DNA of 20,000 nucleotides from an uncultured virus (IMG/VR IMGVR_UViG_3300048883_000321) (IMGVR_UViG_3300048883_000321), one strand, 5' to 3'. Shown: positions 66-18,947, numbered from the stretch's first letter. Notes: a model not told the origin generated them from the letters alone. A program made the numbers and translations.

Positions 66-262
66 ACCCCCACCATACCACAAACAACAAACCACCACCG
101 GACACCCCCACAAAACAACACCAAGTAAACAAACAGTTGACCCCAAAAAAAGGATTACAAAAATGCCGGGCCAACTAGACGCATGGGGGGAGGGGGGGGT
201 ACATACGTTCGACGCGATGGGGGGTCACCCTTAGTGGTTTTGTGACCGCGGTTTGTGGTTTT

Positions 263-2332: not shown

Positions 2333-2590
2333 CTAGTCCGTTAAGACCATAACTTGAAGGCCGACCGAGCCGGAGAACTCGCCGGTTGTCCGGGTGGAGT
2401 CAGACCAGAAGTGAACGTCAACGTCGTCGCCGACCAAATCGGTGGTCAAGACCATGACGAACTCGCCGCCTCGGAAGCGTACTTGGGTGTCACCTAAGAA
2501 GAAGCGGTTGCCTCCGGGGCCCATTGGCCACTCGTTGAGAACCCTGTCGGTTGCTACCAAGTCTGCGAGTTTTTTGAGTGTTACTTTCAT
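2333..2590 (-). CDS. Hypothetical protein (85 aa)
   Basis: AAAGGAG RBS and a full cassette promoter upstream. Confidence 0.85.
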   Translation of the reverse strand: MKVTLKKLADLVATDRVLNEWPMGPGGNRFFLGDTQVRFRGGEFVMVLTTDLVGDDVDVHFWSDSTRTTGEFSGSVGLQVMVLTD

Positions 2591-2624
2591 GTTTGCTCCT
2601 TTGTTGTTGTTTGCTTATAGGTTT

Positions 2625-2689
2625 AGTATACACTAGGGAACCCCCATGCGCAACCTTTCGGTAAAGATTTCTTTGTGACTTTTGTCACA
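2625..2689 (-). promoter_or_regulatory. Cassette promoter: TGTGA-N6-TCACA box (2674-2689), TTGCGC-17-TATACT
   Basis: -35 at 2648-2653, -10 at 2625-2630. The same layout recurs throughout the window. Confidence 0.85.
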
Positions 2690-2760
2690 GCCGGGGCCGA
2701 CTCGAGCCCCCCGGGGCCGACGACAAAAAAAGACGGGAGCCGAAGCCCCCGCCTTGGATT

Positions 2761-2871
2761 TTATTTTGTGGCCTTTGGCTTACCGCCTCGGCGATTGAAG
2801 TTGCCTGCGCCTCCGACGAACTTGGTCGGTGGGCGTTTGTGGGAGCGAGCCCGTCCTTGATATGCTTTCAT
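2761..2871 (-). CDS. Small basic peptide (36 aa, MKAYQGRARSHKRPPTKFVGGAGNFNRRGGKPKATK)
   Basis: Not in the ORF track. AAGGAGG RBS, cassette-type GGTTGC promoter upstream, hairpin downstream. Confidence 0.7.
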   Translation of the reverse strand: MKAYQGRARSHKRPPTKFVGGAGNFNRRGGKPKATK

Positions 2872-2991
2872 TGTGCCTCCTTGGCGTAGTTGCTTACAAA
2901 GTAAGTGTATCAAAGGGAACAACCAGAAGCAACCTCAACCGGAAACTTTCTTAGATTTCTTTTAAGTTCCCAGCCGGGGCCGAAATCCGTA

Positions 2992-3056
2992 TGTGACACA
3001 TGTCACAAAGAAATCTTTGCTTTGGGGTTGCGCATGATGGTTATCTCTGCTATACT
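2992..3056 (+). promoter_or_regulatory. Cassette promoter (+): TGTGACACATGTCACA, TTGCGC-17-TATACT with TG extension
   Basis: Box 2992-3007, -35 3028-3033, -10 3051-3056. Confidence 0.85.
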
Positions 3057-3093
3057 TACACTTGTAAGCAACCAACGGCAAAGGAGCCAAATC

Positions 3094-3192
3094 ATGGAAT
3101 GCGAAGACTGCGAAGAATACGAAGAAGATTGTACCTGCGGAGACCGACCCGCCCCATGGGACACCCGAGGCGAAGCCAACGGAGACCGATAG
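3094..3192 (+). CDS. Small acidic Cys-rich peptide (32 aa, MECEDCEEYEEDCTCGDRPAPWDTRGEANGDR)
   Basis: AAAGGAG RBS, own promoter and terminator. Start reassigned from the 2905 ORF. Confidence 0.75.
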   Translation: MECEDCEEYEEDCTCGDRPAPWDTRGEANGDR

Positions 3193-3201
3193 CCACCAGC
3201 G

Positions 3202-3225
3202 AGCCTGCCCCGAAAGGGGCGGGCT
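3202..3225 (+). terminator. Hairpin with GAAA tetraloop
   Basis: AGCCTGCCCC-GAAA-GGGGCGGGCT just after the stop. Confidence 0.65.
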
Positions 3226-3475
3226 TCAGGCCCCGGTAGTACCTCCGGGGCACAAACGCGTGTGAATCCCATCGTGTGAAAACAAGCCAGCGATGCGGCA
3301 GCGACGAAAAGGTCGGGCGTGAATATACCCGGTAGTACTCCGGGGCGGTGGCGTGTGGTTTCGTCGATGAAGCCATTGTAGCGTGGCCTACCCTGAAACC
3401 CAACCTTACCCGAATCTTTTCTTTTTCGCCTGCTAGGTTAAAGAACGGTTCTATTAAGGTTATATTACGGTTCAT

Positions 3476-3562
3476 GGTTCAAAGCCTGAACCTGCTGCCG
3501 GTTCAAAGCCTGAACCTGCTGCCGTGTCAGAGCCTGAACCTGCTGCCGGTTCACAGTGAACC
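3476..3562 (+). repeat. 24-bp tandem repeat GGTTCAAAGCCTGAACCTGCTGCC x3 plus a partial copy
   Basis: Units at 3476, 3500, 3524 (degenerate) and 3548 (partial). Internal dyad GGTTCA-N5-TGAACC. Confidence 0.85.
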
Positions 3563-3708
3563 TAAACACCAGTTGACCTTATCCGCTATCTCCGGGGCTT
3601 CGTAGGGTCAGAGTGAACCTACAAGGGCTCCGGTAATACTCCGGGGCCTTTGTGCGTAAATCGGTTGGGCCGGGCCGAGGGCCGAAGCCCCCAGCCTCTA
3701 GCCGTTGG

Positions 3709-3867
3709 TTAGCGGACTGCTTTTTTGAGTGCGTCCTTTTGGGCATCCGTCCAAACGTTGCCGTCAAGGTCGGTGAGGGTCCACCGGTCGTTATGAACGT
3801 CGGCCCTAGCCAACTGGTACGCAACTCCCGCTGCCCATGGGTCTAGGTTTATAAGTAGGTCGTTCAT
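3709..3867 (-). CDS. Hypothetical protein (52 aa, MNDLLINLDPWAAGVAYQLARADVHNDRWTLTDLDGNVWTDAQKDALKKAVR)
   Basis: Not in the ORF track. AAAGGAG RBS and cassette promoter (TTGCTT-17-TATACT, box 3949-3964). Confidence 0.8.
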   Translation of the reverse strand: MNDLLINLDPWAAGVAYQLARADVHNDRWTLTDLDGNVWTDAQKDALKKAVR

Positions 3868-4032
3868 GTTTGCTCCTTTGTTGTTTGTTTGATAAGGTTA
3901 GTATAGCACAGGTAACCACCAGAAGCAACCCCGAAACAAAGATTTCTTTGTGACTTTTGTCACACCACAAGCGGCACCCCCCGGGGCTTGACAGGTGAAA
4001 CGGCCACCAGCCCGTTTAAGGACTGGTGGCCG

Positions 4033-4070
4033 GAGCCGGGGGAGGGAAAGGAGGTAACCTCTCCCGCCTC
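4033..4070 (-). ncRNA. 3'-UTR hairpin with anti-SD loop (ACCUCCUUU)
   Basis: Minus strand GGGAGAGG-TTACCTCCTTTC-CCTCCC, followed by a second hairpin at 4001-4032. Confidence 0.5.
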
Positions 4071-4079
4071 TATTTTGGT

Positions 4080-4226
4080 CTAGCGGATTGGCGAGAAGTT
4101 TAGTTCCTCGATTATTCCGACGAGTTCTTCTTGTTTGGTGACCATTTCTTCGCTTGCTTCGGCGAGGGCTCGGTTGGTTGCCATCATTTTACGGAAGGCG
4201 ATTTCGGTTGGGTGGTCCGGGTTCAT
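4080..4226 (-). CDS. Hypothetical protein (48 aa, MNPDHPTEIAFRKMMATNRALAEASEEMVTKQEELVGIIEELNFSPIR)
   Basis: Not in the ORF track. AGGAG RBS and promoter TTGCTT-17-TATACT with box at 4314-4329. Confidence 0.8.
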   Translation of the reverse strand: MNPDHPTEIAFRKMMATNRALAEASEEMVTKQEELVGIIEELNFSPIR

Positions 4227-4368
4227 GTCTTGCTCCTGTTCGTGTGTTGTTTGCTTATAGGTTTAGTATACACCAAGGGATGCCCGAAAGCAACCCCTAG
4301 AGGAAGATTTCTTTGTGACACCTGTCACAGCACCTCGGGCCGGGGCCGAAGCCCCAACCCGCTGACCG

Positions 4369-4596
4369 CTAGAGCAAGCCCAACTCACGGCAGACAACGA
4401 AGCGCCCATCGGCCATGCGCCGACTTGACCAGCAAGCCACGCCGTCGCCCTCCACATGAGCCCATGTGGCATTTATGGCGTTTTGAGAAGTACGCTCTAC
4501 CTTAAAAAGTTCGGTTCGCATGAGTAGTGCGAGGGTAGCGTTATGACGGATAGCGTCAAGGATTTCGATTTTCATGTTTGGCTTTTCGTTGTTCAT
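4369..4596 (-). CDS. Hypothetical protein (75 aa)
   Basis: AAAGGAG RBS and promoter TTGGTT-17-TATAAT with box at 4678-4693. Confidence 0.8.
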   Translation of the reverse strand: MNNEKPNMKIEILDAIRHNATLALLMRTELFKVERTSQNAINATWAHVEGDGVACWSSRRMADGRFVVCRELGLL

Positions 4597-4751
4597 TTTT
4601 GCTCCTTTGTAGTTTGCTTGATAGTTGTATTATAGTGGGACTAAAGCCCATAACCAACCTCTAACTTAAAGTTTCTTTGTGACATCTGGCACAGGGGCCG
4701 GGGCCGCGGTTCGGCTGGCCGACTCGGTTAGGAGCCGACCAGCCGAGGGGT

Positions 4752-4886
4752 TTAGCCCGCCAGCAATACTATGCCGACGAAAAACGAGCAGTTAACTAGG
4801 ACGTAAAGCCCAACGATAACCCTTGCTTTAGGGTAACCCTGTTGGAACTGTTCGGCTAGGTTTTCTAGTGCCGTTGATAGGTTCAT
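4752..4886 (-). CDS. Small membrane protein (44 aa, C-terminal hydrophobic helix)
   Basis: Start reassigned to MNLST after the AAAGGAG RBS. Promoter TTGCTT-17-TATACT with box at 4969-4984. Confidence 0.75.
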   Translation of the reverse strand: MNLSTALENLAEQFQQGYPKARVIVGLYVLVNCSFFVGIVLLAG

Positions 4887-5102
4887 GTTTTCTCCTTTCC
4901 TCCTTGTTGGTATACCTTTAGTATACACCATAAGGTAGGCAAAAGCAACCCCTAGAGGAAGATTTCTTTGTGACATTTGTCACAGGGGCCGGGCCGCGTC
5001 AACCCTCAACCTCTACTAGAGGGTTAGGGTTCCGCCCCAACCCAATCCGGCCGCGTGTGACATAAGTCACATGTGACACATGACCACCAACCCGGCCGAG
5101 GG

Positions 5103-5297
5103 TTACATCACGACCTTTAAGATTTGGACTGGCACGTGACGGAAAATGGTAGGGTTGATGCTGCCGGTGGGTGCTGCCGTGGTGATTACCTTGCCGTTGA
5201 TTTCTACGATTTCAAGCAGTTCAAAACCGGTGGGTACGGTGATGGCTACAACGTCCCCGATTACTAGGTGCTTGGTGTAGGTGTTGGTTAGTTTCAT
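5103..5297 (-). CDS. Hypothetical protein (64 aa, small beta-rich)
   Basis: AAAGGAG RBS and TTGCGG-18-TAGTAT promoter. Confidence 0.8.
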   Translation of the reverse strand: MKLTNTYTKHLVIGDVVAITVPTGFELLEIVEINGKVITTAAPTGSINPTIFRHVPVQILKVVM

Positions 5298-5396
5298 TTT
5301 GGCTCCTTTGCCGTTGCTTCGTTAACCCCATACTATCGTTGTTTTACCCAATACCGCAACCTCAAACTAAAACTTTTCTAGATTTCTTTTCGGGGG

Positions 5397-5410
5397 CGAA
5401 CGTGTGTTCT
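5397..5410. promoter_or_regulatory. LexA-type box CGAAC-GTGT-GTTCT
   Basis: One mismatch to CGAAC-N4-GTTCG. Confidence 0.45.
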
Positions 5411-5502
5411 GTCGCGCTCCCGGCATTACCTCCGGGCCTTTTCTCGGGGGGATTCGGTGGGCTGGTTTGGCGGTAGCCCATTGACTACCGCCACCCTGCC
5501 CG

Positions 5503-5760
5503 CTATGGGGTCTCAACGGCAAACAGCACGTATGTGTGCCCTTGGCCGTCCCCTATGTACTTAAAGCCGTCAAGGTCGGCGTGGTCGTAGCGTACGACCT
5601 GTACGCCCTTGTAACGGTCTAAGCGTCCGCCATAGGTAAAGTGGTCGCACATGTTGCCGACCCGTGTACCGGTGACCGGATGGTGGTCAACAAAAATGTC
5701 GTATTCAATGTTTTCACCTCCGTTGATAAAGGTGTGGTGAATCATGGCTAGGTCTTTCAT
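5503..5760 (-). CDS. Hypothetical protein (85 aa)
   Basis: AAGGAGG RBS and downstream hairpin at ~5469-5493. Confidence 0.8.
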   Translation of the reverse strand: MKDLAMIHHTFINGGENIEYDIFVDHHPVTGTRVGNMCDHFTYGGRLDRYKGVQVVRYDHADLDGFKYIGDGQGHTYVLFAVETP

Positions 5761-5922
5761 GGTGCCTCCTTAAGGCTTGGGCTACTTGCCCTCCCCCATA
5801 ACGATACAGGGTAAACCAACGATTGACGAGGCTAGACAACCATTCATTTTGGTCATAAGTCACACGGCCAGCGGAGAGTGGTCAATCGGTCACAAATAGC
5901 GGTCAAAAAGTGCTTTATTTTC

Positions 5923-6024
5923 GAAGCCACCATTTGCCCTCTAAGACGTTTTCAGCCGATTTATGGGTGGTAGTCCCATAACGACCTTTAACCGCATACG
6001 CGGGCTATACGTGGCTCTGAGGGG
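5923..6024 (+). repeat. ~90-100-bp periodic element, copy C
   Basis: Begins GAAGCCACCATTTGC and ends CTATACGTGGCTCTGAGGGG. Confidence 0.75.
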
Positions 6025-6146
6025 ATTCGCCTTTTATCACTCTTTGTGACCAAACGACCACTCTGAGTGAAGCCGGGGGCGCGCTGAAAATGCCACAGAG
6101 AGCGGTGGAGCGACCACAAATAGTGACGGGAAAACCGCTTGTTTTC

Positions 6147-6248
6147 GAAGCCACCATTTGCTCCCTACGGCGTTTCTAGGGCGCGCGTGGGGGGTTGTGT
6201 CGTATTCGGCCTAAACCGCTTAGGTGGCCTATACGGGGCTCTGAGGGG
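6147..6248 (+). repeat. ~90-100-bp periodic element, copy D
   Basis: Begins GAAGCCACCATTTGC and ends CTATACGGGGCTCTGAGGGG. Confidence 0.75.
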
Positions 6249-6446
6249 AAACCCAAAAAAAGCGGCCTCCGGTTCTTATCCCCCGGGGCTCATGTGTAAA
6301 TCTCACTCTGCGTGGCGGGTTGACCACTTTCCGCAGGCGAATGGTCAGGCGTCACATTTATGATAAATCTTGATTTTGGGGGTGCGAAGGTTGTTATTTT
6401 TGATAGACTCACTCTTGTAAGCAACTATCACCAAGGAGGTGAAAAA

Positions 6447-6827
6447 ATGATAACCATTCAACACAACACGAATCGGAAAAGTGACGGTAAGCCTCTCCAA
6501 GCAATGGGGATGCGCGCTAGTTTTCTCAAGTACTTGGAGGACGCGGTGAAAGCCGTAGCCACCGAGGGACTGAGCCCACTAGCGGCACTCCGTCCACTTG
6601 GCACGATTTACGCTTGGGCTGGGGCGAAAGTCACCATCCACGTGGCACGGGTTCATGGAGATGTCTACCGCATCTCTTGGAGCCGTCCAGCGGGGCGTGG
6701 AGGCATCGCCACCGGCACCAAGACCGTGGAGCGGGTAGCCACCATACGGTGCGCCACCAACCCTTTGGAGTTCCTCACGAACATCGTGGAGCATCCCGAG
6801 GGCTTGGACATTGAGCCCGTCGGTTAA
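6447..6827 (+). CDS. Hypothetical protein (126 aa), paralogue of 8697-9083
   Basis: AAGGAGGT RBS. Shares HNxxRKSDGKP..A.G.RAS and Y.(I/V)SW.RPAGR with 8697-9083. GAAA hairpin downstream. Confidence 0.85.
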   Translation: MITIQHNTNRKSDGKPLQAMGMRASFLKYLEDAVKAVATEGLSPLAALRPLGTIYAWAGAKVTIHVARVHGDVYRISWSRPAGRGGIATGTKTVERVATIRCATNPLEFLTNIVEHPEGLDIEPVG

Positions 6828-7061
6828 TCGGCAGGGGGTCGGCCCGAAAGGGTCGGCTCCCACCGGGCCCCCGGCAGTACCTCCGGGTTGCGTTCGTGTG
6901 AATCTGTGGGCGTGTGAATCCCGTATGCTCCCGGTTCTGCCCTAGACTGTATACGTGTGAATTTGGCCTCCGGTTACCCCGGGGTGCATAGGGGCGTGTG
7001 AATGGGCGTGTGAATCCTTACGCGACAGTTCCGCCCGGCTGGGGGGCAGGGCGGAACTGGA

Positions 7062-7098
7062 GCAGGCAGAGGCGAAAGGAGGGAAAGCCCCCGCCCGC
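7062..7098 (-). ncRNA. 3'-UTR hairpin with anti-SD loop (UUUCCCUCCUUUC)
   Basis: Minus strand GCGGGCGGGGGC-TTTCCCTCCTTTC-GCCTCTGCCTGC, followed by a hairpin at 7026-7059 with a C-rich loop. Confidence 0.55.
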
Positions 7099-7289
7099 TA
7101 TGGCTTAGTATACAGGGTGCCGTCGCTCATCCTGAGGAGGATGGGCTGGCCATCTTCGCTGAAAATGATTTCCTCGGTGGTTGGTGCCCCGGGGTCGTTC
7201 ATCCATGTGATGGCTTCTAGGGCTAGTGCGAAAGTGATAACCCCGGCGATGATGACGGCCGCGGCCATGACCCGGTCGCCCGCCCCCAT
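7098..7289 (-). CDS. Small membrane protein (63 aa)
   Basis: TAATG overlap with the upstream stop. Hydrophobic N-terminal helix. Confidence 0.7.
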   Translation of the reverse strand: MGAGDRVMAAAVIIAGVITFALALEAITWMNDPGAPTTEEIIFSEDGQPILLRMSDGTLYTKP

Positions 7290-7573
7290 TACAGTGCCCC
7301 GCATTCACGGAGTGCTGACAGGTCAACGCTTTTCCATTCGGATGGGCGGGTGCCGTTCATGAGTGGGTGGACTTTGGTTGCGGTTTTCATGGAGGCATTG
7401 ACGACGATGCCGGAGTGGCCGTTGGTGGTGGGCCAGATGTAGCAGATGTCGCCACCGTTGTAGGTGAATGCCTTCATGTCTTTGTGGGTGTTAAGCCATT
7501 GGCGGGCATCGTCTAGACTGCCGAATGAGTACCGTGGCCGATTGTAGGCTAGGTCGTGGGTTATTGTTTTCAT
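7289..7573 (-). CDS. Hypothetical protein (94 aa)
   Basis: AAGGAG RBS, TATAAT at 7603-7608, box at 7642-7657. Confidence 0.8.
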   Translation of the reverse strand: MKTITHDLAYNRPRYSFGSLDDARQWLNTHKDMKAFTYNGGDICYIWPTTNGHSGIVVNASMKTATKVHPLMNGTRPSEWKSVDLSALRECGAL

Positions 7574-7777
7574 GTTTGCTCCTTGTAGTTGGTTATAGAG
7601 TCATTATACATGGTGGAGGGTGGGCTTGCTACCCTATTTGGTGTGGCATCCGTCACATCTCCCCCGGGGCTCCGTGTGTGTGACGAATGTCACAGAGAAA
7701 CTTTGGGTCAGAGGTTGCGTTATGGTGGTTACCTCCGCTATACTGGGGTTATGACAAGGAGGGAGGAGGTGAAAAAA

Positions 7778-7990
7778 ATGATAATCAAAAAAGACTACAT
7801 CATACTTTGGGAAACCTCAGAGGGCGAACTTGCTGCCGAAGAGGCACCAAACGCCACCGTAAGCGAGTTGGAGTTCCTCATAGAACACCCGCTAGTTACC
7901 GGCGACCGCATCAAAGAGGACACCGTGAAGGTGTTTGAACTGGGCGAACAGGTCTGGTACGGCACCGGCGCACCGCCAGTGCGCATTTAG
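7778..7990 (+). CDS. Hypothetical acidic protein (70 aa)
   Basis: GGAGGT RBS, box 7679-7694, TTGCGT-18-TATACT, downstream hairpin at ~7997-8025. Confidence 0.8.
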   Translation: MIIKKDYIILWETSEGELAAEEAPNATVSELEFLIEHPLVTGDRIKEDTVKVFELGEQVWYGTGAPPVRI

Positions 7991-8144
7991 GCCACAGGGT
8001 CGGCTCCCTCACCGGGAGTCGGCCCACCGGGCCTCCGGTTACCCCGGTTGCGAGCAGGTGTGGAAAGCCGCGTGTGAATCTGGGCTCCCGGGCCTGAATA
8101 GACTGAATACGTGTGAATTTGGGCTCCCGGGCGGGTAGCCAAGA

Positions 8145-8175
8145 GCCCCACCCCCAAGGAGGGGAGGGGTGGGGC
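8145..8175 (-). ncRNA. 3'-UTR hairpin with anti-SD-like loop (UCCCCUCCUUG)
   Basis: Minus strand GCCCCACCCC-TCCCCTCCTTG-GGGGTGGGGC just after the stop at 8184. Confidence 0.5.
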
Positions 8176-8183
8176 GAGGTTGG

Positions 8184-8333
8184 CTATCGGGTGATGCCGA
8201 AGGCGATGTCCATTATGGCTGCCAGTTCGGGGAGAGGGTTCCCGGCCTTGGCGTACCGTTCGGCAGCGTCTTGGATGGCAGCATCTTCTTTCTCTGCCTT
8301 GACGTAGTCCGATGGGTCTGGTTCGTAGGTCAT
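8184..8333 (-). CDS. Hypothetical protein (49 aa)
   Basis: Start reassigned to MTYEP after GAAAGGA. TTGGTA-16-TATAAT, box at 8416-8431. Confidence 0.75.
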   Translation of the reverse strand: MTYEPDPSDYVKAEKEDAAIQDAAERYAKAGNPLPELAAIMDIAFGITR

Positions 8334-8521
8334 GTGTTTTCCTTTCGTGTAGTTGGTGTTACCTTTATTATACAGGCTGGGAACCCAATACCAACCCCGA
8401 AACAAAGATTTCTTTTGTGCCATGCGTCACACGACACCCCCGGGCCAGCGCAACCCTCAACCTCTACTTTAGGGTTAGGGTTCACGGCGGGCAGAACTCC
8501 CGGCCGGGGCGCGGAGCAAAA

Positions 8522-8601
8522 TGTGACGGATGTCACATGTGACAAATGACCGCTGTGACACATGACCGGTGTGACAAATGACCGCTGTGACGTATGGCAC
8601 A
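8522..8601 (+). repeat. Five tandem 16-bp units each starting TGTGAC
   Basis: TGTGACGGATGTCACA TGTGACAAATGACCGC TGTGACACATGACCGG TGTGACAAATGACCGC TGTGACGTATGGCACA. Confidence 0.9.
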
Positions 8602-8696
8602 TGGATTCGCCCGGCCACCTCCGGCTATCTCCGGCGGGAATCTCGCGGGTGGTTTGGTGGGGGAGGGTGACCGCTCACGGCCACCCTCCCGAACTG

Positions 8697-9083
8697 CTAG
8701 ATAACCTCGATTTCTATCGCGGTTGGTTGGTTTTCAATGTCGGCGAAGTAGCCGATAAGGTCGGTAGCGGTGTTGACCGTGACCGAGCGGACGATTTCCG
8801 CTTTGCCCATAGCGTCGCTGTAGGTGTTCTTGCGACCTGCGGGGCGTATCCATGACACGCTGTACCGGTCGGCACCTATGCGGGTGATGGATGCGAAGCA
8901 GACAGCGCCTGCGAAGAAAGAGAACCACGAACCTTGACGGTTATGGTTGACGGGGCGAACTACTTTCTCGCCGAGCCCTTTAGACAGTTGGTCAAGACTC
9001 GCTATTAGCGAAGCACGTTGACCGGCTGCTTTCATGGGCTTGCCGTCGCTCTTCCTTTCTTTGTTGTGGGTGAGTGTTGCCAT
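8697..9083 (-). CDS. Hypothetical protein (128 aa), paralogue of 6447-6827
   Basis: AGGAGG RBS before MATLT. Collinear similarity to 6447-6827. Confidence 0.85.
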   Translation of the reverse strand: MATLTHNKERKSDGKPMKAAGQRASLIASLDQLSKGLGEKVVRPVNHNRQGSWFSFFAGAVCFASITRIGADRYSVSWIRPAGRKNTYSDAMGKAEIVRSVTVNTATDLIGYFADIENQPTAIEIEVI

Positions 9084-9238
9084 GGGTGAACCTCCTAGGT
9101 TCGGGTTCAAGGTGTTTCCTTGATAAATACCATGCTAGAGGTTGCGTACCCAAAAATGACAGATTGTGACGGATGCCACACAACAATCTTAGAGTGGTCA
9201 AGCCACCACTTAGAGCGCACAAAAAAACGCTCATTTCT

Positions 9239-9341
9239 GAAGCCACCATTTGCCCCATGTGGCGTTTCTAGGTCACCGGTGGGGGATAGGGTCATTATAG
9301 GGGTCAAAGCCCACAGCGGGCTTGTGTGTGGCTGTGAGGGG
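9239..9341 (+). repeat. ~90-100-bp periodic element, copy E
   Basis: GAAGCCACCATTTGC...GGCGTTTCTAGG...GGCTGTGAGGGGAAA. Confidence 0.7.
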
Positions 9342-9379
9342 AAACGCTGGGAGTGGTTAGAAGAACGCTCTAAGCGAAG

Positions 9380-9408
9380 CGAACAGGTGTTCGCCGAACG
9401 TGTGTTCG
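9380..9408. promoter_or_regulatory. Two adjacent LexA-type boxes
   Basis: CGAACAGGTGTTCG-C-CGAACGTGTGTTCG, both perfect CGAAC-N4-GTTCG. Confidence 0.65.
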
Positions 9409-9649
9409 AGCCCAAAAAACGCCTCCGGTACTCCCGGTTGCATTGGCGGGGGGATTCTGGCGTGTGAATCCTCCGGTGGCCCCTCCGGTGGCCCTCCCGG
9501 TTTATGTTACGACTTTACACGTGTGAATCTGCCCCCGGGTGTGGTGTGTCAGATGTCACAAAGAAAACTTTGGGGGAGGTTGGTTCTTGGGAGTTTGGGG
9601 TGTATGCTTACGGCTGTAAGGCAAGTCAACCAACTACGAAAGAGAAAAC

Positions 9650-9856
9650 ATGAAACTGATTCAAGTTCAAGACGGGAGCCAAATGCTTTTGGTTCATCTG
9701 ATTCATTGCGCTGCCGACGCAACCAACAGCACAGAGCGGGAACTGACAACGGTAACCATGTCATGCGCCATGCTTGAACGTTTGGTTCGGGATGCTCAAG
9801 AAGCCGCCGGAGAGTTTCGGAGTGGTGAACATTGGGCGAGATTAGCCTCCCGCTAG
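9650..9856 (+). CDS. Hypothetical protein (68 aa)
   Basis: GAAAGAG RBS, box 9545-9560, TTGGTT-17-TATGCT, UUCG hairpin at 9863-9886. Confidence 0.8.
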   Translation: MKLIQVQDGSQMLLVHLIHCAADATNSTERELTTVTMSCAMLERLVRDAQEAAGEFRSGEHWARLASR

Positions 9857-10076
9857 CGGGCAGGGGTTGGCCTTCGGGTCAGCCCCACCCCCCCCGGGTC
9901 TCAAGCAGACCTCTCCCGGGACGGCCCCCGGTTTACTTTACGGCTTTACAGGTGTGAATCTGAGCCCCCGGTTGCAGCGGGGTTTTTATCGGGGCGTGTG
10001 AAAATGGGGGCCACAGGTGTAAGCAAGACCTGTGACCCCCGGCCACCGGCCCCAAAGTGAGGGGAGGGGCGGTGGT

Positions 10077-10114
10077 TCCCGGAGGGCGAAGGAGGTTCAA
10101 AAAACCCTCCGGGA
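10077..10114 (-). ncRNA. 3'-UTR hairpin with anti-SD loop (ACCUCCUUC)
   Basis: Minus strand TCCCGGAGGG-TTTTTTGAACCTCCTTCG-CCCTCCGGGA, followed by a hairpin at ~10041-10076 with a C-rich loop. Confidence 0.55.
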
Positions 10115-10119
10115 GATTG

Positions 10120-10437
10120 TTAGCCGTATAGTAGCGTGTTCGTTTCTATTGGGTAGGGTTGGTAGCGGGCATCGGATTCTGTGGCGGATTCCATCCAGTA
10201 GCCGCAGTGTTCTTTGAAGTGGTCTCCGGTGAGGGGTTCGTCTAGCATCATGGTGAAGCAGTCGAAGTTGACCCATTCGGTGGTTACGCCGTCCGGTGTG
10301 ATGGTTTGGCCTTCTCGCCAGACGTTTATGGTTTGTTGGGTGCTGCTCCCGGTTATGGCGGTGAATCGGAACTCTGCGCCTATGCTGGTGTTGATGTGGA
10401 TGAAGTCGTAGTCGTCCGGGCTCTGTAGGTTGGTCAT
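10120..10437 (-). CDS. Hypothetical protein (105 aa)
   Basis: AGAAAG RBS and TTGGTT-17-TATAGT promoter. Confidence 0.85.
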   Translation of the reverse strand: MTNLQSPDDYDFIHINTSIGAEFRFTAITGSSTQQTINVWREGQTITPDGVTTEWVNFDCFTMMLDEPLTGDHFKEHCGYWMESATESDARYQPYPIETNTLLYG

Positions 10438-10520
10438 TTGCTTACTTCTTTCTTGTAGTTGGTGTTAGTTATACTATACAGGGTGAAGGCTGGAAAACCA
10501 ACCTCCACCCAAAGTTTTTC

Positions 10521-10802
10521 TTAGCCGACCCGGCCGAGGTTAATGTCGGTTTCAAGGCGGTCAAGGGAACGCTCCATGTCTACGTAAATCCCGGCGATGA
10601 CCCGAGGGTCAAAGAACTCTAGGGTGGCGTAGAGATGGTTTTCTAAATCTTCAACGCTGTCCGGTAGGTTGTTGAGGTCGTGTTGGATGTTGGCTGCCCA
10701 GTCGGAAGCCCGGACGAGGTCTCTAATACATTCCTCATCTTCTCCGGTGCCGAACAGTTCGGCCAGCACTCGGCTTGGGTCTATTGCTAGTTTGTAGGTC
10801 AT
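10521..10802 (-). CDS. Hypothetical acidic protein (93 aa)
   Basis: AGAAGGA RBS and TTGGTA-16-TATAAT promoter. Confidence 0.85.
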   Translation of the reverse strand: MTYKLAIDPSRVLAELFGTGEDEECIRDLVRASDWAANIQHDLNNLPDSVEDLENHLYATLEFFDPRVIAGIYVDMERSLDRLETDINLGRVG

Positions 10803-10882
10803 GTTTCCTTCTTTCTTGTAGTTGGTTGTATTGTCTATTATAGGGGTATGTCAGGGAATACCAACCCCGAAACCAAAGTTTC

Positions 10883-11032
10883 TTAGGAATGTTTTCCTCG
10901 GCATCCCCGGCGGGCTTTTTCCTTCCTCCGGTCTGTATAGGTGCTAGCCCGGACTTTGCGCCCATCGCGGAGAGCGTCAAGGTATGCGTCCCGGCTTAGG
11001 GTTTTGATGGTGGTTTTCGCTCGTTTGGTCAT
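10883..11032 (-). CDS. Small basic protein (49 aa, MTKRAKTTIKTLSRDAYLDALRDGRKVRASTYTDRRKEKARRGCRGKHS), apparently leaderless
   Basis: Not in the ORF track. TATACT at 11040-11045 ends 7 nt before the ATG. No RBS. Box at 11068-11083. Confidence 0.7.
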   Translation of the reverse strand: MTKRAKTTIKTLSRDAYLDALRDGRKVRASTYTDRRKEKARRGCRGKHS

Positions 11033-11098
11033 AAGGTTGAGTATAGCAGCACTAGCCGAAAAGCGTGGGTGGCATGCGTCACACCCCCCCCGGTGGGG

Positions 11099-11998
11099 CT
11101 AGCCCGCCACCAACACCTCCGGGAGAGCAGCAGCCTCTTTCAGAATAAAGTTCACAGCCTTGGAAGCCTGTCCGGCGGCATCCCATACGAACTTGTTATC
11201 ATTGTTCAAGGCTTTAAGCCAAGAAGCGATGTATTCGCAATGGTCCGGCCGAGGGTCAGTTTCGACACCTAAACGATTGGCGAGAAACACCGCGCCCAGT
11301 TCAGCGACCAGTTCCTCAAAAGCGTACCCGGCCCGACCATCGTTATCTTTCTTACGGTCAGCCCGGTTCGCTGGCTTCGTCCAATGAGTGAACTCATGAG
11401 CCACGGTACCGAACCATCCGGCGGGAGAATCAAACTGGACATCTTCAGGTGTGGAAATGTAGTCTCCACTAGGGCTGTAGAACGCCCGGTCAGATGGTAC
11501 TTCTCGCCAGTCGGCACCTAAAGTTTGGAACCACTCCCGGTAGACCTGTACGTCCATGTCAGGTGAGATTATAGGTTGCTCGTACTCCGGTGCGTCGTCT
11601 ACTTGGCTAGCGTGAAACACGTTGTAGGCGCGGGCCATCATGCGTCGGGAGGATGCCCCGGCGTGGCGTGGGCATGGCTTGGATGCCCACTTGTTACAGG
11701 TACCGCAAACGTAGGACGAACCCCAGAAGAGGATAGATGTCCCGGTTTCGCCTTTTTTGACTTGTGCGCCTAGTTTGACCCAACCTTTATAGGTTGACCA
11801 GCGCGGGTCGGCTGGGTCCGGTGACATGATGGCTAGGGTCATCATGTTGCCACCAGAGTAGATTGTCCCGGTCTGCGGGTTGTGGGGCATTCCTGAAACG
11901 CCTTGCCATGGTTGTGTCCATTCGCCCGGCGTGTTGGTTAGCGCGTCTATGACGCTTTGGGTTAGTTTGGTTTGTATTGCTTCGGTTTTTTCGCTCAT
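11099..11998 (-). CDS. ardC: ArdC-family ssDNA-binding antirestriction protein (DUF1738 N-domain plus zincin-like MPTase domain)
   Basis: WxxPW, PxNxxTGxxYxGxN, RWxTYxxWxxLGAQVKKGE, YNVF, AFYSPxxDYI, HEFTHW, YAFEELVAELGA and YIASWLKAL motifs. Confidence 0.92.
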   Translation of the reverse strand: MSEKTEAIQTKLTQSVIDALTNTPGEWTQPWQGVSGMPHNPQTGTIYSGGNMMTLAIMSPDPADPRWSTYKGWVKLGAQVKKGETGTSILFWGSSYVCGTCNKWASKPCPRHAGASSRRMMARAYNVFHASQVDDAPEYEQPIISPDMDVQVYREWFQTLGADWREVPSDRAFYSPSGDYISTPEDVQFDSPAGWFGTVAHEFTHWTKPANRADRKKDNDGRAGYAFEELVAELGAVFLANRLGVETDPRPDHCEYIASWLKALNNDNKFVWDAAGQASKAVNFILKEAAALPEVLVAG

Positions 11999-12257
11999 GT
12001 TTTTTTCTTTCTTGTAGTTGGGTGTGCCCTCATACTACAGCGTCAACTACCGATTTACTCACTTTTTGGTGTGGCATGTGTCACACCGCCCCCGGTACAG
12101 AAAAACCAGACCCACACGCCCCGGTCGAGCCCCCAACTACAAGGGCTCCCGGTTGCATCCCTTAGATGCGTTTTGCGTGTGAATCTGGCGTGTAAATACG
12201 GGCGTGTGAATCTCAGCCCGTGTAAATCTGTACCCGGTCGCCCAAAACCATTTCTGC

Positions 12258-12452
12258 TTATTTCCAAGGATTGACGATTGTTACCTCTGGACGCGCTTCC
12301 CATACGTCACCCTCTAACAGCACTTCGCGCTCCCGGTCATCGGTTTGACCCCACATTTCTTCGGCGATAGAGCGGGCTTCATCTTCTGACCCGGCTTCAA
12401 TCTCTACACATAGGGAGTAGGTGTCCACGATTTCTACATAGTATTCTGGCAT
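12258..12452 (-). CDS. Small protein with YxV...(I/V)EAxSEDEA motif (DpnD/PcfM-like), 64 aa
   Basis: Start at MPEYY, directly after the upstream stop. Motif shared with 13878-14057 and 18751-18924. Confidence 0.75.
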   Translation of the reverse strand: MPEYYVEIVDTYSLCVEIEAGSEDEARSIAEEMWGQTDDREREVLLEGDVWEARPEVTIVNPWK

Positions 12453-12454
12453 GA

Positions 12455-12859
12455 CTACGCCCTCTCGGCTTCGTACATGTTTTCGCAGACCACGCAAATG
12501 TTCCCGGCGTACTCTACATGGTCAATGCCACGGTCGAAAATGTCTAGGTCGCCGTTAGGGTCGTCCTTGATTCCGCAATGGTCACAATGAACGGTTACAG
12601 GCCACCCGGTATCGGAGTACATCATTTGGTCGTACATGGTGTCGAACTCAACGAAGAGGTCGAGGTAGGTGACTTCGCCTACGCCCGGTCGGATGTCGGT
12701 GTCGTTGTATCGGCTTGAGTTGCCGAAATCTTTAACCCATCCTTCTATGGATTGTTCTAAACCGTCAATGAGGTAGAAGCCTCCGGTTGGGGCACGGTGT
12801 AGGTCGCCCCGGTTGACGCATAGTCGGGCTTCGCTTCCTGCTCGGGATACTGGTTTCAT
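12455..12859 (-). CDS. Hypothetical protein with C-terminal CxxC...CxxC (134 aa)
   Basis: AGAAAG RBS, TTGGTT-17-TAGAGT promoter, CDHC/CVVC. Confidence 0.8.
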   Translation of the reverse strand: MKPVSRAGSEARLCVNRGDLHRAPTGGFYLIDGLEQSIEGWVKDFGNSSRYNDTDIRPGVGEVTYLDLFVEFDTMYDQMMYSDTGWPVTVHCDHCGIKDDPNGDLDIFDRGIDHVEYAGNICVVCENMYEAERA

Positions 12860-12953
12860 GGTAGTTGTCTTTCTGGTAGTTGGTTGGTTACAAGTACTAC
12901 TCTAGGGGTAAGGATAGCCAAAACCAACCTCACCCCTAAAGTTTCTCAAATAG

Positions 12954-13271
12954 TTATGCGTTCACGACCCGGTACATAGCCCGCCCATCATTAGCCCGCC
13001 ACCCGGTCGGCAACGACTCCACACGCACAACCTCAGCCCCCGGCATGTATTTACACCGGAAAGTTTCAGCCGTTTTACGGTAACGCCACACAGACGCCGT
13101 GTGAATGTCAGGTGTGAAATAGTGGCGACCAAGCGAACGGTAATACGAACCCCGGTGGGTAGCCAAATCCGACTCCCGAAGAGCCCAAACCTCAAACGCC
13201 CTGCCCACTCTGCCGCGGGGGTCAATCCGACGACGCTCATGAACCACCCATCCGGTGGCAAACTGGCTCAT
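12954..13271 (-). CDS. Hypothetical basic protein (105 aa)
   Basis: ATGA overlap with the stop of 13268-13876. Confidence 0.7.
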   Translation of the reverse strand: MSQFATGWVVHERRRIDPRGRVGRAFEVWALRESDLATHRGSYYRSLGRHYFTPDIHTASVWRYRKTAETFRCKYMPGAEVVRVESLPTGWRANDGRAMYRVVNA

Positions 13272-13876
13272 ACCTTGACCTCGTTAATGGCGCACGATAA
13301 CGCTCCCTCCGGCGACAACTCCCATTCAGGGTATTTGTCAGCAGGGTAGATTATGCTAGTAAACCCGCGGTCAAACTCTACCTGCCATTCGTCGTACCCA
13401 GATTCGTACATTGCCATTGGAGCGTCCGGTGTGTAATCGGTTTGGAGAGCCCGTACCGCACCATTAACAAAAACCGTCCGGTGACGCCACGCTGGTTGCT
13501 CTTCAATGCTTAACGTAACGAATACGGCTTCGGGGAACATTTTGGAAATCGTTTTAATGGCGATGTCCGGTGTGTCCCAAGGGGTAGTAAATGTGAATGT
13601 GTTTGGATGGTCATGCGGGTAGGCGTGATTGTCCGGCCATTTGGTGCCCCAGTTTTTGAGAGCCCAGCCGTAACCGTCAATGGTGCCCGGTTGGCCGCCG
13701 TCGTTGAAAACAGTGAACCCGCCCTCAACTTGACGCTGCCCGGCTTCGGGGAATGGGATGAACTTGTCAATGAACGAACCGCCATCGGCGATGTGTTCGT
13801 CTATCTGTTTAGTGGCAGCAGCGACATCTTCGTCACGCCCGGTGATGTGTAGTGTGTTGTAAACGTAGTTCGGCAT
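13268..13876 (-). CDS. DUF1281/YubB ferredoxin-like family protein
   Basis: MPNxxxNxLxIxG start, WxxxNWGTKW and FxTPWxxP motifs. Confidence 0.8.
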   Translation of the reverse strand: MPNYVYNTLHITGRDEDVAAATKQIDEHIADGGSFIDKFIPFPEAGQRQVEGGFTVFNDGGQPGTIDGYGWALKNWGTKWPDNHAYPHDHPNTFTFTTPWDTPDIAIKTISKMFPEAVFVTLSIEEQPAWRHRTVFVNGAVRALQTDYTPDAPMAMYESGYDEWQVEFDRGFTSIIYPADKYPEWELSPEGALSCAINEVKV

Positions 13877-13877
13877 T

Positions 13878-14057
13878 CTAAACCTCCGTGGTTTCGGTTA
13901 CTTCAGGTTCAATGATTTCTAGCAGTGTTGCGCCATCCCAGTTGATGTCCGGTGAGAACCCTTCAACGAGGTCTCCAGCGGTTTCGGCATCCGGTGCCTC
14001 TACTCGAATCCAATAGTTTGATGTTGCTGTGAATGAAACTTCATAAGTGTTTGTCAT
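13878..14057 (-). CDS. Small YxV...VEAxDAExA motif protein (59 aa)
   Basis: AGAAAG RBS before MTNTY. Confidence 0.75.
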   Translation of the reverse strand: MTNTYEVSFTATSNYWIRVEAPDAETAGDLVEGFSPDINWDGATLLEIIEPEVTETTEV

Positions 14058-14120
14058 GTTGGTCTTTCTGGTTGGTGGGGGCATCGCCTGCGTTGGACGA
14101 TGCCCCCGGTTGGTGGTTGG

Positions 14121-14438
14121 TTAAACGCTGGTGATTCTAAGGTTTTCGACTGCCTCTTGGATTCCCCGGCGTACATCGTCGGCGACTGCTTCGGCAACAA
14201 CGTCGCCGACTTTTTCGTCAATAGCGTCGCTAAGCATGTCAGAGGTGACTAGGTCGTAGTCGTAGTCCCAAGAAATGTTGTCTAGTTGGGTGCTGACCCG
14301 GCCCTCTAGTTCGGAGTCAAGGTGGTCATTGACAAGGGTAGATACGACCTCGGTGACGCTTTCAAGCGGGTCCGGTTGTGGTAGGTAGGGGGCGATGGCT
14401 TCAGCCAAAGCCTTGAGTAGTGGGGTTAATGTGTCCAT
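14121..14438 (-). CDS. Hypothetical acidic helical protein (105 aa)
   Basis: AGAAAG RBS, TAGTAT at 14489-14494, box at 14537-14552, 5'-UTR hairpin at 14461-14483. Confidence 0.8.
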   Translation of the reverse strand: MDTLTPLLKALAEAIAPYLPQPDPLESVTEVVSTLVNDHLDSELEGRVSTQLDNISWDYDYDLVTSDMLSDAIDEKVGDVVAEAVADDVRRGIQEAVENLRITSV

Positions 14439-14564
14439 AGTTGGTTTTCTTTCTGTTAAGTAGTGGGGGAGGTTCCCCCACTAAAATCATACTATCGTGA
14501 GAATCAGGGAACCGAAACGTCTAGTTGACTTTATTATGTGTCATCCGTCACACGCCGCCCCCGG

Positions 14565-15362
14565 TTAGAACTTCTTGACAAACTCGGCCATCCCGACCGG
14601 CAGGTGCCGTGCCCGGCCCTTCGCATACAACGCCACGATGGAACCAAACGGGTCGTCGTAACGAAAATCCGTCCGGTCGCCGTTAATAACTGGCATCCCA
14701 TACCAAGTGTCGGCATACCCGGTCTCTTTATGTTCTTTAGGGAATACAACAGCGACGCTGCCCCCGGCCCGCACCTTGGCGCGGATGTCGTCTATTCCGT
14801 GGCGTTCGGTCGCCGAGAAAGTTAAACGGTATCGGCGTTGAGGGTCCCGGTCGCGGTCCCAGTTTTTGGTGTAATCGTAGGTGCGGACGTTCTCCGGTGC
14901 CTCGTAAAATAGCCACGGTGCTACATCCTCCCACGCAATGTCTGACACGATGTTAAGCCTCCGGCCGAGGATTTCGGTTTTCTTGGATGCTTTGACGGTC
15001 TCCCAATGAATCAACGACACCGCGGCGTCGGGGTCAGAGTAGAGGAAACGTGTCCGGTCTATCCCTAGTTGTTGGGCGTAGGGCATGTCTAGGCGACCGG
15101 TGTGGCGTATACAGACTGCCCGGCATTGTGGCGTGGATTGTGGGCATACGTTGTGGCCGGATAGGCGGTGAGGGCTCCCGGTGAACGAAACGGTGTGGTG
15201 TTCGTTTTTGCGTAGTTTAGCATTTGGTTCGGATAGGTATGGGGCTTTAATGGTCCGGTATCCGTTTTGTTCTCGGAATGCGTACCACGCTGCCCGGCTG
15301 TCTAGTTCTGGGACTAGGTCGGCGTGTAGTTTGGTGGGTCGGGTTATCTGTAGGTTGGTCAT
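14565..15362 (-). CDS. Phage Gp88-family protein (Cys triad, radical-SAM-like), apparently leaderless
   Basis: SGxNVCPxSTxxCxxxC, RLNxxSDIxWE, YDYTK, YxLTFS, VINGDxTDxRxxDP and IVxLxAKG motifs. TAGCAT -10 ends 6 nt before the ATG. Confidence 0.8.
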   Translation of the reverse strand: MTNLQITRPTKLHADLVPELDSRAAWYAFREQNGYRTIKAPYLSEPNAKLRKNEHHTVSFTGSPHRLSGHNVCPQSTPQCRAVCIRHTGRLDMPYAQQLGIDRTRFLYSDPDAAVSLIHWETVKASKKTEILGRRLNIVSDIAWEDVAPWLFYEAPENVRTYDYTKNWDRDRDPQRRYRLTFSATERHGIDDIRAKVRAGGSVAVVFPKEHKETGYADTWYGMPVINGDRTDFRYDDPFGSIVALYAKGRARHLPVGMAEFVKKF

Positions 15363-15575
15363 ACCTAGATGCTATCGGGTAAACCACCGGTTTACTCTAT
15401 GACATGTGTCACACCATCCCCGGTACCCCAAAACCCGCTCCGGTCCGAGGGGAGCGGCCCGGGAGCAAGGATGACCAACAAACCTGCCCCCGGACAAATC
15501 AGGGAATACAATGCCACCCAACAAGGGGCGTGTGAATCTGGGAATACAGCGGCCGGCGACTAGGCTCGTGTGAAT

Positions 15576-15896
15576 TTACGCTCGGGCGTTTTCCCACGCC
15601 ATATCCGCAAGCAACTCTGAGTAAAGCCGCGACCACGAACGTTCTACCTTGGGAAGCGTGGCTCTGTCTCGTTTCATCCCAATCCACCAGAGAACCTCCG
15701 ACCCATAGATATGAGGGATGCTTAGTGTTGAGGCCCCGGCGTTAACAGTCACCGATATTCCCCACCATTTTGGTGCGTCCCCGCAGGTTCGGCCAAACTC
15801 CCGGCCGTTAGTTAAGGGAGGTTCGTTGAAGTTAAGGTTATGTATAATCATGTCGGCGGTCATGTCGGTTATTGTTATAACGATTGGGTCGCTCAT
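15576..15896 (-). CDS. Hypothetical protein (106 aa)
   Basis: ATGA coupling and AAGGA RBS. Confidence 0.75.
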   Translation of the reverse strand: MSDPIVITITDMTADMIIHNLNFNEPPLTNGREFGRTCGDAPKWWGISVTVNAGASTLSIPHIYGSEVLWWIGMKRDRATLPKVERSWSRLYSELLADMAWENARA

Positions 15897-16195
15897 TGTT
15901 TGTCCTTAGCGTCAAGTAGCCCAAAGTCGCAGACAAGTTGGGTAACTAACTCTTTTGCCACTTCCCGGTCTAAGACCACGGTGACTTTACCCTCGTCGTC
16001 GTCCCGGTAGAAGCAAACACGGAAGGTGTTTTCAAGGTCGCCGGGGCTAGCGTCCACGGAAGCATCACGCATCACGAACACGTGTCCCTCTAGCCGATAC
16101 TGAGGGAAGGACGACGCATCGCAGGTGAGTTTGATCCCGGCAACACCGGTGTTTAGGTTGACGGTCTGGATGCCGTTTTGGTTATTGATGTGCAT
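15893..16195 (-). CDS. Hypothetical protein (100 aa)
   Basis: Operon context and GGGAG RBS. Confidence 0.75.
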   Translation of the reverse strand: MHINNQNGIQTVNLNTGVAGIKLTCDASSFPQYRLEGHVFVMRDASVDASPGDLENTFRVCFYRDDDEGKVTVVLDREVAKELVTQLVCDFGLLDAKDKQ

Positions 16196-16490: not shown

Positions 16491-16690
16491 TGTTGTTCTC
16501 CTTCTGCAATGTCGTCCGCCCACTCGTTAAAGGTCATGCTGACCGTACCCAGATGGGTGTCCGTGTCTGGCGTGAACCCTCGCAGGAACACATCCATAAT
16601 GATGCCCTCTTCGGTAATGTTGATGTCTAGGTGCCGACCATCATCCAGTTTGACGCTCATCCGGTGGCAAACTCGCTTTTTGTTGCTCAT
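16487..16690 (-). CDS. Hypothetical protein (67 aa)
   Basis: Start MSNKK with AAGGAG RBS and ATGA coupling. Confidence 0.75.
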   Translation of the reverse strand: MSNKKRVCHRMSVKLDDGRHLDINITEEGIIMDVFLRGFTPDTDTHLGTVSMTFNEWADDIAEGEQQ

Positions 16691-18924: not shown

Positions 18925-18947
18925 GTTCTGATCCTTTGGTTGTTGGT

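Follow-up and report, generated by a model that had tools for sequence, protein, structure and literature searches.

The DNA considered here, called the window throughout, is a 20-kb stretch (20,000 nucleotides, nt) of phage-like early DNA with 54% GC from an uncultured virus (IMGVR_UViG_3300048883_000321), and its credible genes are nearly all small and encoded on the minus strand. Four of these minus-strand open reading frames (ORFs; 4080-4226, 7098-7304, 8184-8333 and 10120-10437) end in RNA hairpins, H1 to H4, that begin 0-9 nt past the stop codons and lie at 4033-4070, 7061-7099, 8145-8175 and 10077-10114 on the minus strand. In the minimum free energy folds each hairpin holds the anti-Shine-Dalgarno (aSD) word CCUCCUU unpaired in a loop of 9-16 nt. 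The 3' regions of H1 to H4 fold with -47.1, -49.0, -32.4 and -67.8 kcal/mol (z = -5.4, -5.8, -4.6 and -7.0), and at each of them none of 200 shuffled sequences matched the energy of the native fold. These are the four hairpins with different stems and a shared loop that a preceding sequence-only reading had described behind minus-strand stops. The closing U and G of H3 had been included in the loop there, and the H4 loop is longer than had been written.

H1 opens 9 nt past the stop of 4080-4226, a gene of 48 amino acids (aa) with the start site ACAGGAGCAAGACAUG, and closes the loop UUACCUCCUUUC (4046-4057) with 11 pairs (-17.6 kcal/mol). The stem of H2 has its onset within the stop codon of 7098-7304, the second of two overlapping genes (7289-7573 and 7098-7304, together 7098-7573), the first of which has the start site CAAGGAGCAAACAUG; its 13 pairs, three of them G-U, close the loop UUUCCCUCCUUUC (7074-7086). 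H3 consists of 11 pairs around the loop CCCCUCCUU (8156-8164; -23.2 kcal/mol) and is enclosed by an outer helix, 8136-8186, that takes in the stop codon of 8184-8333, a 49-aa gene with a promoter-like site at 8394-8367. H4 (-21.1 kcal/mol) follows the stop of 10120-10437 by 5 nt and bears the largest loop, the 16-nt UUUUUGAACCUCCUUC (10088-10103); this gene and the preceding one, 10521-10802 (together 10120-10802, minus strand), have AGAAAG-type start sites.

As the sequence-only reading had noticed, three of the hairpins are followed by a second stem-loop on the same strand, and those behind H2 and H4 are C-rich. Behind H1 it lies at 4001-4032 (13 pairs, loop UUAAAC, followed by GUUU), behind H2 at 7026-7059 (C-rich interior UGCCCCCCAGCC, no U run) and behind H4 at 10043-10075 (loop CCCCUCACUUU), where a third hairpin of 13 pairs at 10006-10040 is followed by AUUUU. 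The 3'-region fold contains no second hairpin downstream of H3. Homologous copies of the hairpins in 10006-10075 stand at the start of contig L033. The hairpin at 4001-4032 is likely the actual terminator of the H1 cluster, and that at 10006-10040 the likely terminator of the H4 cluster; since the last hairpin of both clusters carries a short U run, the aSD hairpin would be an extra element ahead of the terminator. Intrinsic terminators combine a GC-rich stem with a short loop of about 3-8 nt and a U run directly behind the stem. The stems of H1 to H4 are indeed GC-rich, but their loops measure 9-16 nt, so that they could not appear in a terminator scan, and what follows directly is another hairpin (H1, H2 and H4) or CUCUUGGCU (H3).

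On the plus strand AAGGAGG occurs six times, namely at the four hairpin loops and in the start sites of the plus-strand genes 6447 and 7778. With hairpins defined leniently (8 or more pairs, no more than one mismatch, loop of 7-22 nt), four of the six CCTCCTT words fall into minus-strand loops, which make up 4.6% of positions (binomial P = 6e-5); on the plus strand none of three does, and each of the other 34 permutations of the word is found in a loop at most once. Other repeated 7-mers also come to four loop occurrences, since cassettes recur throughout the window, but these have homologous flanks, whereas the stems of the CCTCCTT hairpins are not homologous. Owing to its G-U pairs H2 folds with -23.6 kcal/mol on the minus strand versus -12.6 kcal/mol on the plus strand, and for eight of the ten hairpins tested, relatives included, the coding-strand RNA folds better through such pairs, in agreement with the earlier placement of the hairpins on coding-strand RNA. 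Across 13 oriented sequences, 8 of 122 large-loop hairpins of the forward strand contain CCTCC and none GGAGG, versus 4 and 6 of 146 on the reverse strand.

The sequence-only reading had itself pointed to one observation that would speak against it, namely that the plus-strand AGGAGG serves as ribosome-binding site of real plus-strand ORFs. Of the four window loops, that of H3 alone is followed within a usable distance by a start codon, which opens a 126-codon frame at 8169-8549. We rejected this ORF, as it crosses the promoter and operator repeats of the minus-strand gene and reads as a low-quality protein, unlike the minus-strand gene 8184-8333, which reads as a normal small protein. With the relatives included, any ORF was found behind two of eight hairpins, both implausible, and plus-strand ORFs behind the loops were therefore rejected altogether.

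Three further observations concern the hairpins or their vicinity. A variant contig of run X11, one of four DNA runs whose contigs were compared with the window, has single-base deletions in H2 at 7064, 7073, 7087 and 7092, two per stem arm, among the differences listed, which give no reading of the H2 loop. A further hairpin at 166-217 (minus strand) bears a 16-nt poly-C loop with CCUCC (CCCCCCCCUCCCCCC), without CCUCCUU. A 55-codon frame at 9933-10100 (minus strand) starts from a UUG inside the H4 loop, 7 nt past the stem sequence GGAGGG, and crosses hairpins and array motifs; it is probably spurious.

Related phages and start-site dialects

Relatives of the phage, with about 55-65% protein identity, were found in IMG/VR and in metagenomes with profiles of a GP88-like protein and of a 126-aa protein family. 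They share the architecture of the window, that is operators, ATTCACAC arrays in one orientation, small genes and reverse-strand genes, and hairpins of the same kind are present on the main-gene strand of L003-type contigs, L002, L024/L025 and L029. The L003 hairpin (6707-6763) has the loop UACUUUCCCUCCUUUCGAC, almost the same as the H2 loop, although the two stems are unrelated, and it stands in the context of H2, behind ArdC and small genes and ahead of ATTCACAC arrays and convergent genes; L006, L027 and L030 contain copies that are about 94% identical. The hairpins of L002 (14930-14966, loop AUACCUCCCUUCC), L024 (4989-5027, loop UACCUCCCUUC, identical in L025) and L029 (2608-2647, loop AUGUUCUCCCUA) are orthologous and lie behind a conserved 40-aa gene, ahead of a truncated element resembling transfer-messenger RNA (tmRNA). 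In their alignment both partners differ in 4 of 14 stem pairs, and all three loops keep CUCCCU; 92.9% of the cells are paired, against 28.6-54.8% with slid partners. As 27 of 500 shuffles reach the observed score with these three sequences, compensatory change in the stems is suggestive only. The loop motif is kept while the stems turn over, apparently by such changes, as the sequence-only reading had expected of homologues. The hairpins of the relatives begin 41-57 nt past the stop codon, so that in these phages, too, the aSD word is located in the 3' untranslated region (UTR). A MAFFT alignment of six hairpins is not structure-aware, and for this reason scans with descriptors of our own took the place of a covariance model. 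One more candidate, L029 2570-2603 (loop CCCCUCCCAAGAAA), was dropped, since the opposite strand closes a longer hairpin (-24.6 versus -18.0).

The truncated element, an 82-nt 'mini-tmRNA', was noted at L002 14971-15052, L024 4904-4985 (minus strand) and L029 2652-2733, in each case 3-4 nt behind the aSD hairpin. Of tmRNA it keeps the first helix, the T arm and the acceptor stem, with 12 nt in place of the 304 model positions of pseudoknots and tag frame, and it scores 63-65 bits on Rfam RF00023 (gathering threshold 47). It was missed by ARAGORN, is absent from the window, and runs through CCA-CU-AUG into a Cys-rich 76-aa gene without a Shine-Dalgarno (SD) sequence.

The start sites of the early genes differ between these phages and the loops differ with them. 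Early genes of the window and of L003 start behind AAGGAG(G/C), those of L002 and L024 behind CAAGGGAGAA, and those of L029 behind CUAGGGAGAC and CAAGGGAGAA; the loop word is CCUCCUU in phages with AAGGAG(G), CUCCCUU with AAGGGAG and UCUCCCUA with CUAGGGAGA. We counted the start sites, listed by simple ORF rules, that are complementary to a loop over 7 or more contiguous nt. The window loops matched 8-13 of the 54 window sites and 6-12 of the 34 L003 sites, versus 0-5 of 43 in L002 and 0-1 of 19 in L024. Conversely, the L002 loop matched 6 of 43 sites in L002 and 10 of 19 in L024, versus 1 of the 54 window sites and 2 of the 34 L003 sites, and the L029 loop matched 10 of 34 in its own phage (8 of these over at least 8 nt) versus 3 of 54 and 1 of 34 in the window and in L003. 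The L029 loop does not contain any CCUCC and yet can form a 9-nt pairing with CUAGGGAGA.

On the coding strand, the antisense word of a phage's own dialect is nearly confined to these loops and to positions opposite the start sites of reverse genes. In the window this accounts for all six words (four in loops, two opposite reverse starts), in L002 and in L024 for both (one and one), and in L029 for all three (one and two); L003 has one word in the loop, two opposite reverse starts and one unexplained. This scarcity agrees with a report that bacterial genes are depleted of aSD-like words (PMC12697547), to which the loops would be deliberate exceptions.

Two dialects also divide the window by region. 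AGAAAG-type sites head the operons at 10120-19205, AAGGAG/GGAG-type sites head those at 2333-9083 and the reverse genes, and all four hairpins are found within or at the edge of the GGAG-type region. No loop is complementary to AGAAAG-type start sites; AGAAAG-led genes and a candidate leaderless gene (11032-10883) would thus be spared, which is consistent with the earlier suggestion that leaderless and possibly AGAAAG-only genes escape. The candidate leaderless gene (minus strand) encodes a basic 49-aa product from an ATG located 7 nt past a TATACT hexamer resembling a -10 element, without SD.

The start sites of a hairpin's own operon match its loop over 5-6 contiguous nt in the window and over 6-8 nt in L002, L024 and L029, while those of other genes reach 9-10 nt. 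The own-gene matches are therefore the weaker ones, though intramolecular pairing may need less. The longest matches are those of 7778 with H2 (9 nt), 6447 with H3, 4886 with H1 and the start site of 9083, CUAGGAGGUUCACCCAUG, with H4 (10 nt); the 6447 start site ranks with the best complements for three loops, those of H1, H3 and H4 (8-9 nt).

Gene context

Three genes of the window run in the opposite, plus-strand direction: 6447-6827, 7778-7990 and 9650-9856. The first, with the start site CCAAGGAGGUGAAAAAAUG, belongs to the 126-aa family and converges on H2, and the second, of 70 aa and with the start site CAAGGAGGGAGGAGGUGAAAAAAAUG, converges on H3. A forward paralogue of the 126-aa gene is the minus-strand gene at 8697-9083, whose start site was given above. 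Each phage has one or two genes of the family, which may run with or against the main genes, the other members being L002 15928-16311 and L003 7493-7873 and 11225-11671 (both minus strand). Its AF2 model is confident (pLDDT 85.7); there was no match in Pfam or PHROG, none by Foldseek at E <= 0.001 and none by VIA at Z >= 5. Matches to known families in the window are limited to an ArdC-like protein (11099-11998) and a GP88-like protein (14565-15362).

Many of the small minus-strand genes have a promoter-like site of their own and a repeated TGTGACnnnnGTCACA operator. Cassettes of promoter, operator and 5'UTR recur before them, for instance at 2605-2691, 3880-3966, 4245-4331 and 4900-4986, and tandem operator half-sites occur at 8522-8599 and 5056-5085. 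Arrays of an asymmetric motif (GTGTGAAT on the plus strand, ATTCACAC(G) in the gene direction) are intergenic and always in the same orientation; they were located at 1963-2133, 6881-7016, 8039-8121, 9431-9531, 9941-10004, 12146-12228, 15494-15577, 18012-18073 and 19360-19553. They are accompanied by CCGGAG/ACCGGAGG and GCAACCGGG words, are present in all related contigs, and an array or a degenerate copy is situated downstream of all four aSD hairpins. The arrays may be binding sites for an unknown protein and would in this resemble 'stoperators'.

A comparison of 3900-10300 with GenBank phages yielded no DNA match, near or distant, and only remote ArdC-like protein matches. In IMG/VR, single window proteins found nothing, the operator pattern found one unrelated contig, and the 126-aa family found no further contigs. 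No RNA run was among the sequencing runs listed as matching the region, whereas DNA runs with 34-93% of its words contain variant genomes, and ARAGORN found neither tRNA nor tmRNA in the window. In a search for the host, the GP88-like profile had no relative in 185,579 species genomes and the array pattern gave mostly single chance matches across many phyla; the 11 loci with at least four copies of the array motif were all unrelated to the window.

Function and rival explanations

The best reading, in which our confidence is about even, is that of regulatory hairpins at transcript 3' ends that pair with SD regions. Short early phage transcripts would end in these hairpins, and each large loop would hold single-stranded a sequence of 7-10 nt that is complementary to the phage's own strong SD or start-site dialect. 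Most probably the loop pairs with the SD regions of phage mRNAs with GGAG-type sites, a group that lies together with the hairpins in one region of the genome and to which the reverse-strand genes belong. Pairing would lower the translation and perhaps the stability of these mRNAs, and AGAAAG-led or leaderless genes would escape. From the sequences we infer that the RNAs are produced and stable, that they pair in the cell and that pairing represses. Action in trans is more likely than action in cis, given how poorly each loop matches the gene that it follows, and the shift of the loop with the dialect of its own phage speaks for phage start sites as the likelier partner and against a simple copy of the 16S tail. 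Two other roles were considered and rejected: unwinding by ribosomes through closeness to the stop codon is not a general feature, given the spacers of 41-57 nt in the relatives, and an insulator against read-through into the next gene fits H1 only.

Several points weigh against pairing with start sites. In five of eight hairpins the stem consists of GGGAGG/CCUCCC-like words, and with stems so often made of SD-like and aSD-like words the loops could have originated by slippage, as copies of the 3' arm. H1 is slightly more stable on the plus strand (-20.2 kcal/mol) than on the minus strand (-17.6 kcal/mol). The start-site lists behind the complement counts include unverified ORFs, some 50 start sites would yield extensions of the match to 9-10 nt by chance, and any 7-nt word that fits a consensus common to the start sites must strike many genes, so that no specific target can be named. 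The dialect argument depends on three states in a handful of related lineages, few of the relatives examined are independent lineages, and a single such hairpin was seen in each relative. Among six lower-GC relatives with ATTCACAC arrays none (0 of 6) has a hairpin of at least 9 pairs bearing such a loop; a folding-based look at the lower-GC relatives gave three weak forward candidates (+0.4, -5.8 and -12.4 kcal/mol) versus ten on the reverse strand.

One rival explanation is that ordinary 3'-end hairpins, terminators or exonuclease blocks, carry pyrimidine-rich loops as mere by-products of a slipped CCUCC-like 3' arm or of a compositional habit, with no role in pairing. All hairpins sit at places where terminators are expected, the lower-GC relatives manage without them, and in H1, H4 and the hairpins of L002, L024 and L003 a 5' arm of GGGAG(A)G or GGAGGG faces a CCUCCC-like 3' arm, which the loop thus repeats. 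We nevertheless consider this explanation unlikely: a GGAGG-like 5' arm is lacking in H2 and H3, the 9-nt match of the L029 loop to CUAGGGAGA of its own phage does without CCUCC, and the loops of 9-19 nt contrast with the tight UUCG, AAUG and CUAACC loops of other gene-end hairpins in the window. Moreover, H1 and H4 are followed by a separate hairpin with a short U run (GUUU and AUUUU), the loop was kept though the inner stem was replaced, and its word is otherwise avoided on the coding strand. The C-rich loops of the following hairpins (UGCCCCCCAGCC and CCCCUCACUUU) and the lack of a U tract on any aSD hairpin would also suit landing sites for the termination factor Rho or another RNA-binding protein, but the loops are short for a Rho site, and neither the exact CCUCCUU word nor its shift with the dialect would be explained; we regard this as hardly probable.

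The sequence-only reading had favoured mimicry of the 16S rRNA tail. With such mimicry the loops would act globally, on strong-SD host mRNAs or as a decoy for a tail-binding factor, and translation would shift to leaderless or AGAAAG-led phage genes. H1 carries ACCUCCUUUC and H2 CCUCCUUUC, long matches to the usual Gram-positive-type 16S tail, which may not be that of the host. The candidate leaderless gene, the AGAAAG-led genes that head most operons above 10120 and the lack of any loop complementary to AGAAAG sites also suit this idea. Of the earlier proposal the shared aSD loop stands, but a simple copy of the tail does not: the loops of L002/L024 (CCUCCCUU) and L029 (UCUCCCUA) have moved away from the 16S consensus, to CUCCCUU and UCUCCCUA, and towards the AAGGGAG and CUAGGGAGA sites of their own phages. 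In addition, a few copies of a 7-9-nt loop would face all SD sequences of the cell, which would demand very high RNA levels, and global mimicry therefore appears improbable. Still less probable is a signal on the other strand, where AAGGAGG would represent real or decayed start sites of plus-strand genes, or else resemble an SD by its mere presence in reverse transcripts, and the hairpins would terminate convergent genes from both directions. H2, H3, H4 and the L003 hairpin do lie between convergent genes, the strongest AAGGAGGUGAAAAAAUG sites are used by reverse genes, the reverse complement of the H4 loop resembles a AAGGAGGUGAAAAAAUG site with an A-rich spacer, the L029 loop, if its closing bases are counted, is perfectly antisense to CTAGGGAGAACATG, and at H3 a GTG 6 nt past AAGGAGG opens the 126-codon frame. 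However, a usable start codon is found in only two of eight hairpins, and both frames are antisense to conserved or better genes (that of L029 to a gene conserved in three phages, whereas that of the window crosses operator repeats). H1 and the hairpins of L002, L024 and L029 lie away from convergent junctions, the G-U pairs of H2, L003 and L024 speak against the reverse strand, and a decaying relic would not retain a perfect SD word amid stem turnover.

Pairing with the phage's own start sites, to return to the preferred reading, may be extended to a class switch by SD dialect: the hairpins of early transcripts would silence all GGAG-led messages in trans, including those of reverse-strand genes and possibly host mRNAs, the AGAAAG-led and leaderless operons above 10120 would be immune, and lineages would re-tune their loops. 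This extension is doubtful, and we offer it with little confidence. Should the pairing prove real, a phage could adjust the translation of a whole class of its genes by simple means that need RNA alone, and loop and SD would be a clear natural case of co-evolution. If it does not, the hairpins are a warning that a regulatory motif can be mimicked by start-site cassettes that recur and by terminators rich in pyrimidines.

Comparison with known systems

Anti-SD loops are already known from bacterial small RNAs (sRNAs), and aSD words in mRNAs are known to be selected against normally. In the uncultured phages described here, such words stand on large loops at the ends of several early genes, and the word changes with the phage's own dialect. 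Keyword searches of open-access text found no report of aSD loops at phage gene ends. An Rfam scan of the whole window gave nothing at the gathering threshold; the one match was Atu_C7 at 8140-8258 (minus strand), with 21 bits versus the required 45 (E = 0.33). Assignment to the cuckoo, icaR-type or c4 RNAs appears to fail on motif, arrangement or model score.

The 6C RNA of actinobacteria is a further case of C-rich loops. As far as they are described, RNAIII, the Rsa RNAs and 6C are host-encoded, independently transcribed sRNAs with a conserved overall architecture, and the likeness to the phage hairpins lies in the C-rich loops that seed on SD sequences. For RNAIII and the Rsa RNAs of Gram-positive bacteria, pairing of C-rich or UCCC loops with SD regions is described in the cited passages (PMC4615179). 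The closest precedent from phages is the c4 RNA of P1 and P7, whose loop sequences pair around a ribosome-binding site and so block translation, as reviewed (PMC12197685). In that account c4 is a processed, dedicated RNA of enterobacterial phages with one target operon, and the present hairpins have no sequence or model match to it.

In placement, the closest systems are the icaR mRNA of S. aureus, in which the 3'UTR motif UCCCCUG pairs with the mRNA's own SD (PMC3868564), and long-range aSD repression in B. subtilis, in which aSD-like 8-mers hundreds of nt downstream pair with the ribosome-binding site and repress, and are depleted from genes (PMC12697547). Both have a pyrimidine-rich aSD word in the 3' part of the mRNA that can pair with an SD, block initiation and promote decay; pairing of the icaR type also yields a substrate for RNase III. 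As reported, they act in cis on their own SD, whereas here the own sites match over 5-6 nt and those of other genes over up to 9-10 nt; unlike them, the phage hairpins present the motif in a dedicated large loop that recurs at several genes. In form, the closest are the cuckoo sRNAs of alphaproteobacteria (RSs0680 / C14 / A6), in which an aSD-like loop motif is carried on variable stems with compensatory change and presumably occludes ribosome-binding sites, as described in the cited passages (PMC4615179). The cuckoo RNAs are, in that description, free-standing sRNA genes of 2-4 adjacent modules all bearing CCUCCUCCC, whereas the phages have one aSD loop per site, with the words CCUCCUU, CCCUCCUU or ACCUCCUU and neighbours that bear other loops. 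What both have in common is a conserved aSD-like loop on varying stems, set in the phages as one hairpin per transcript end behind a protein gene.

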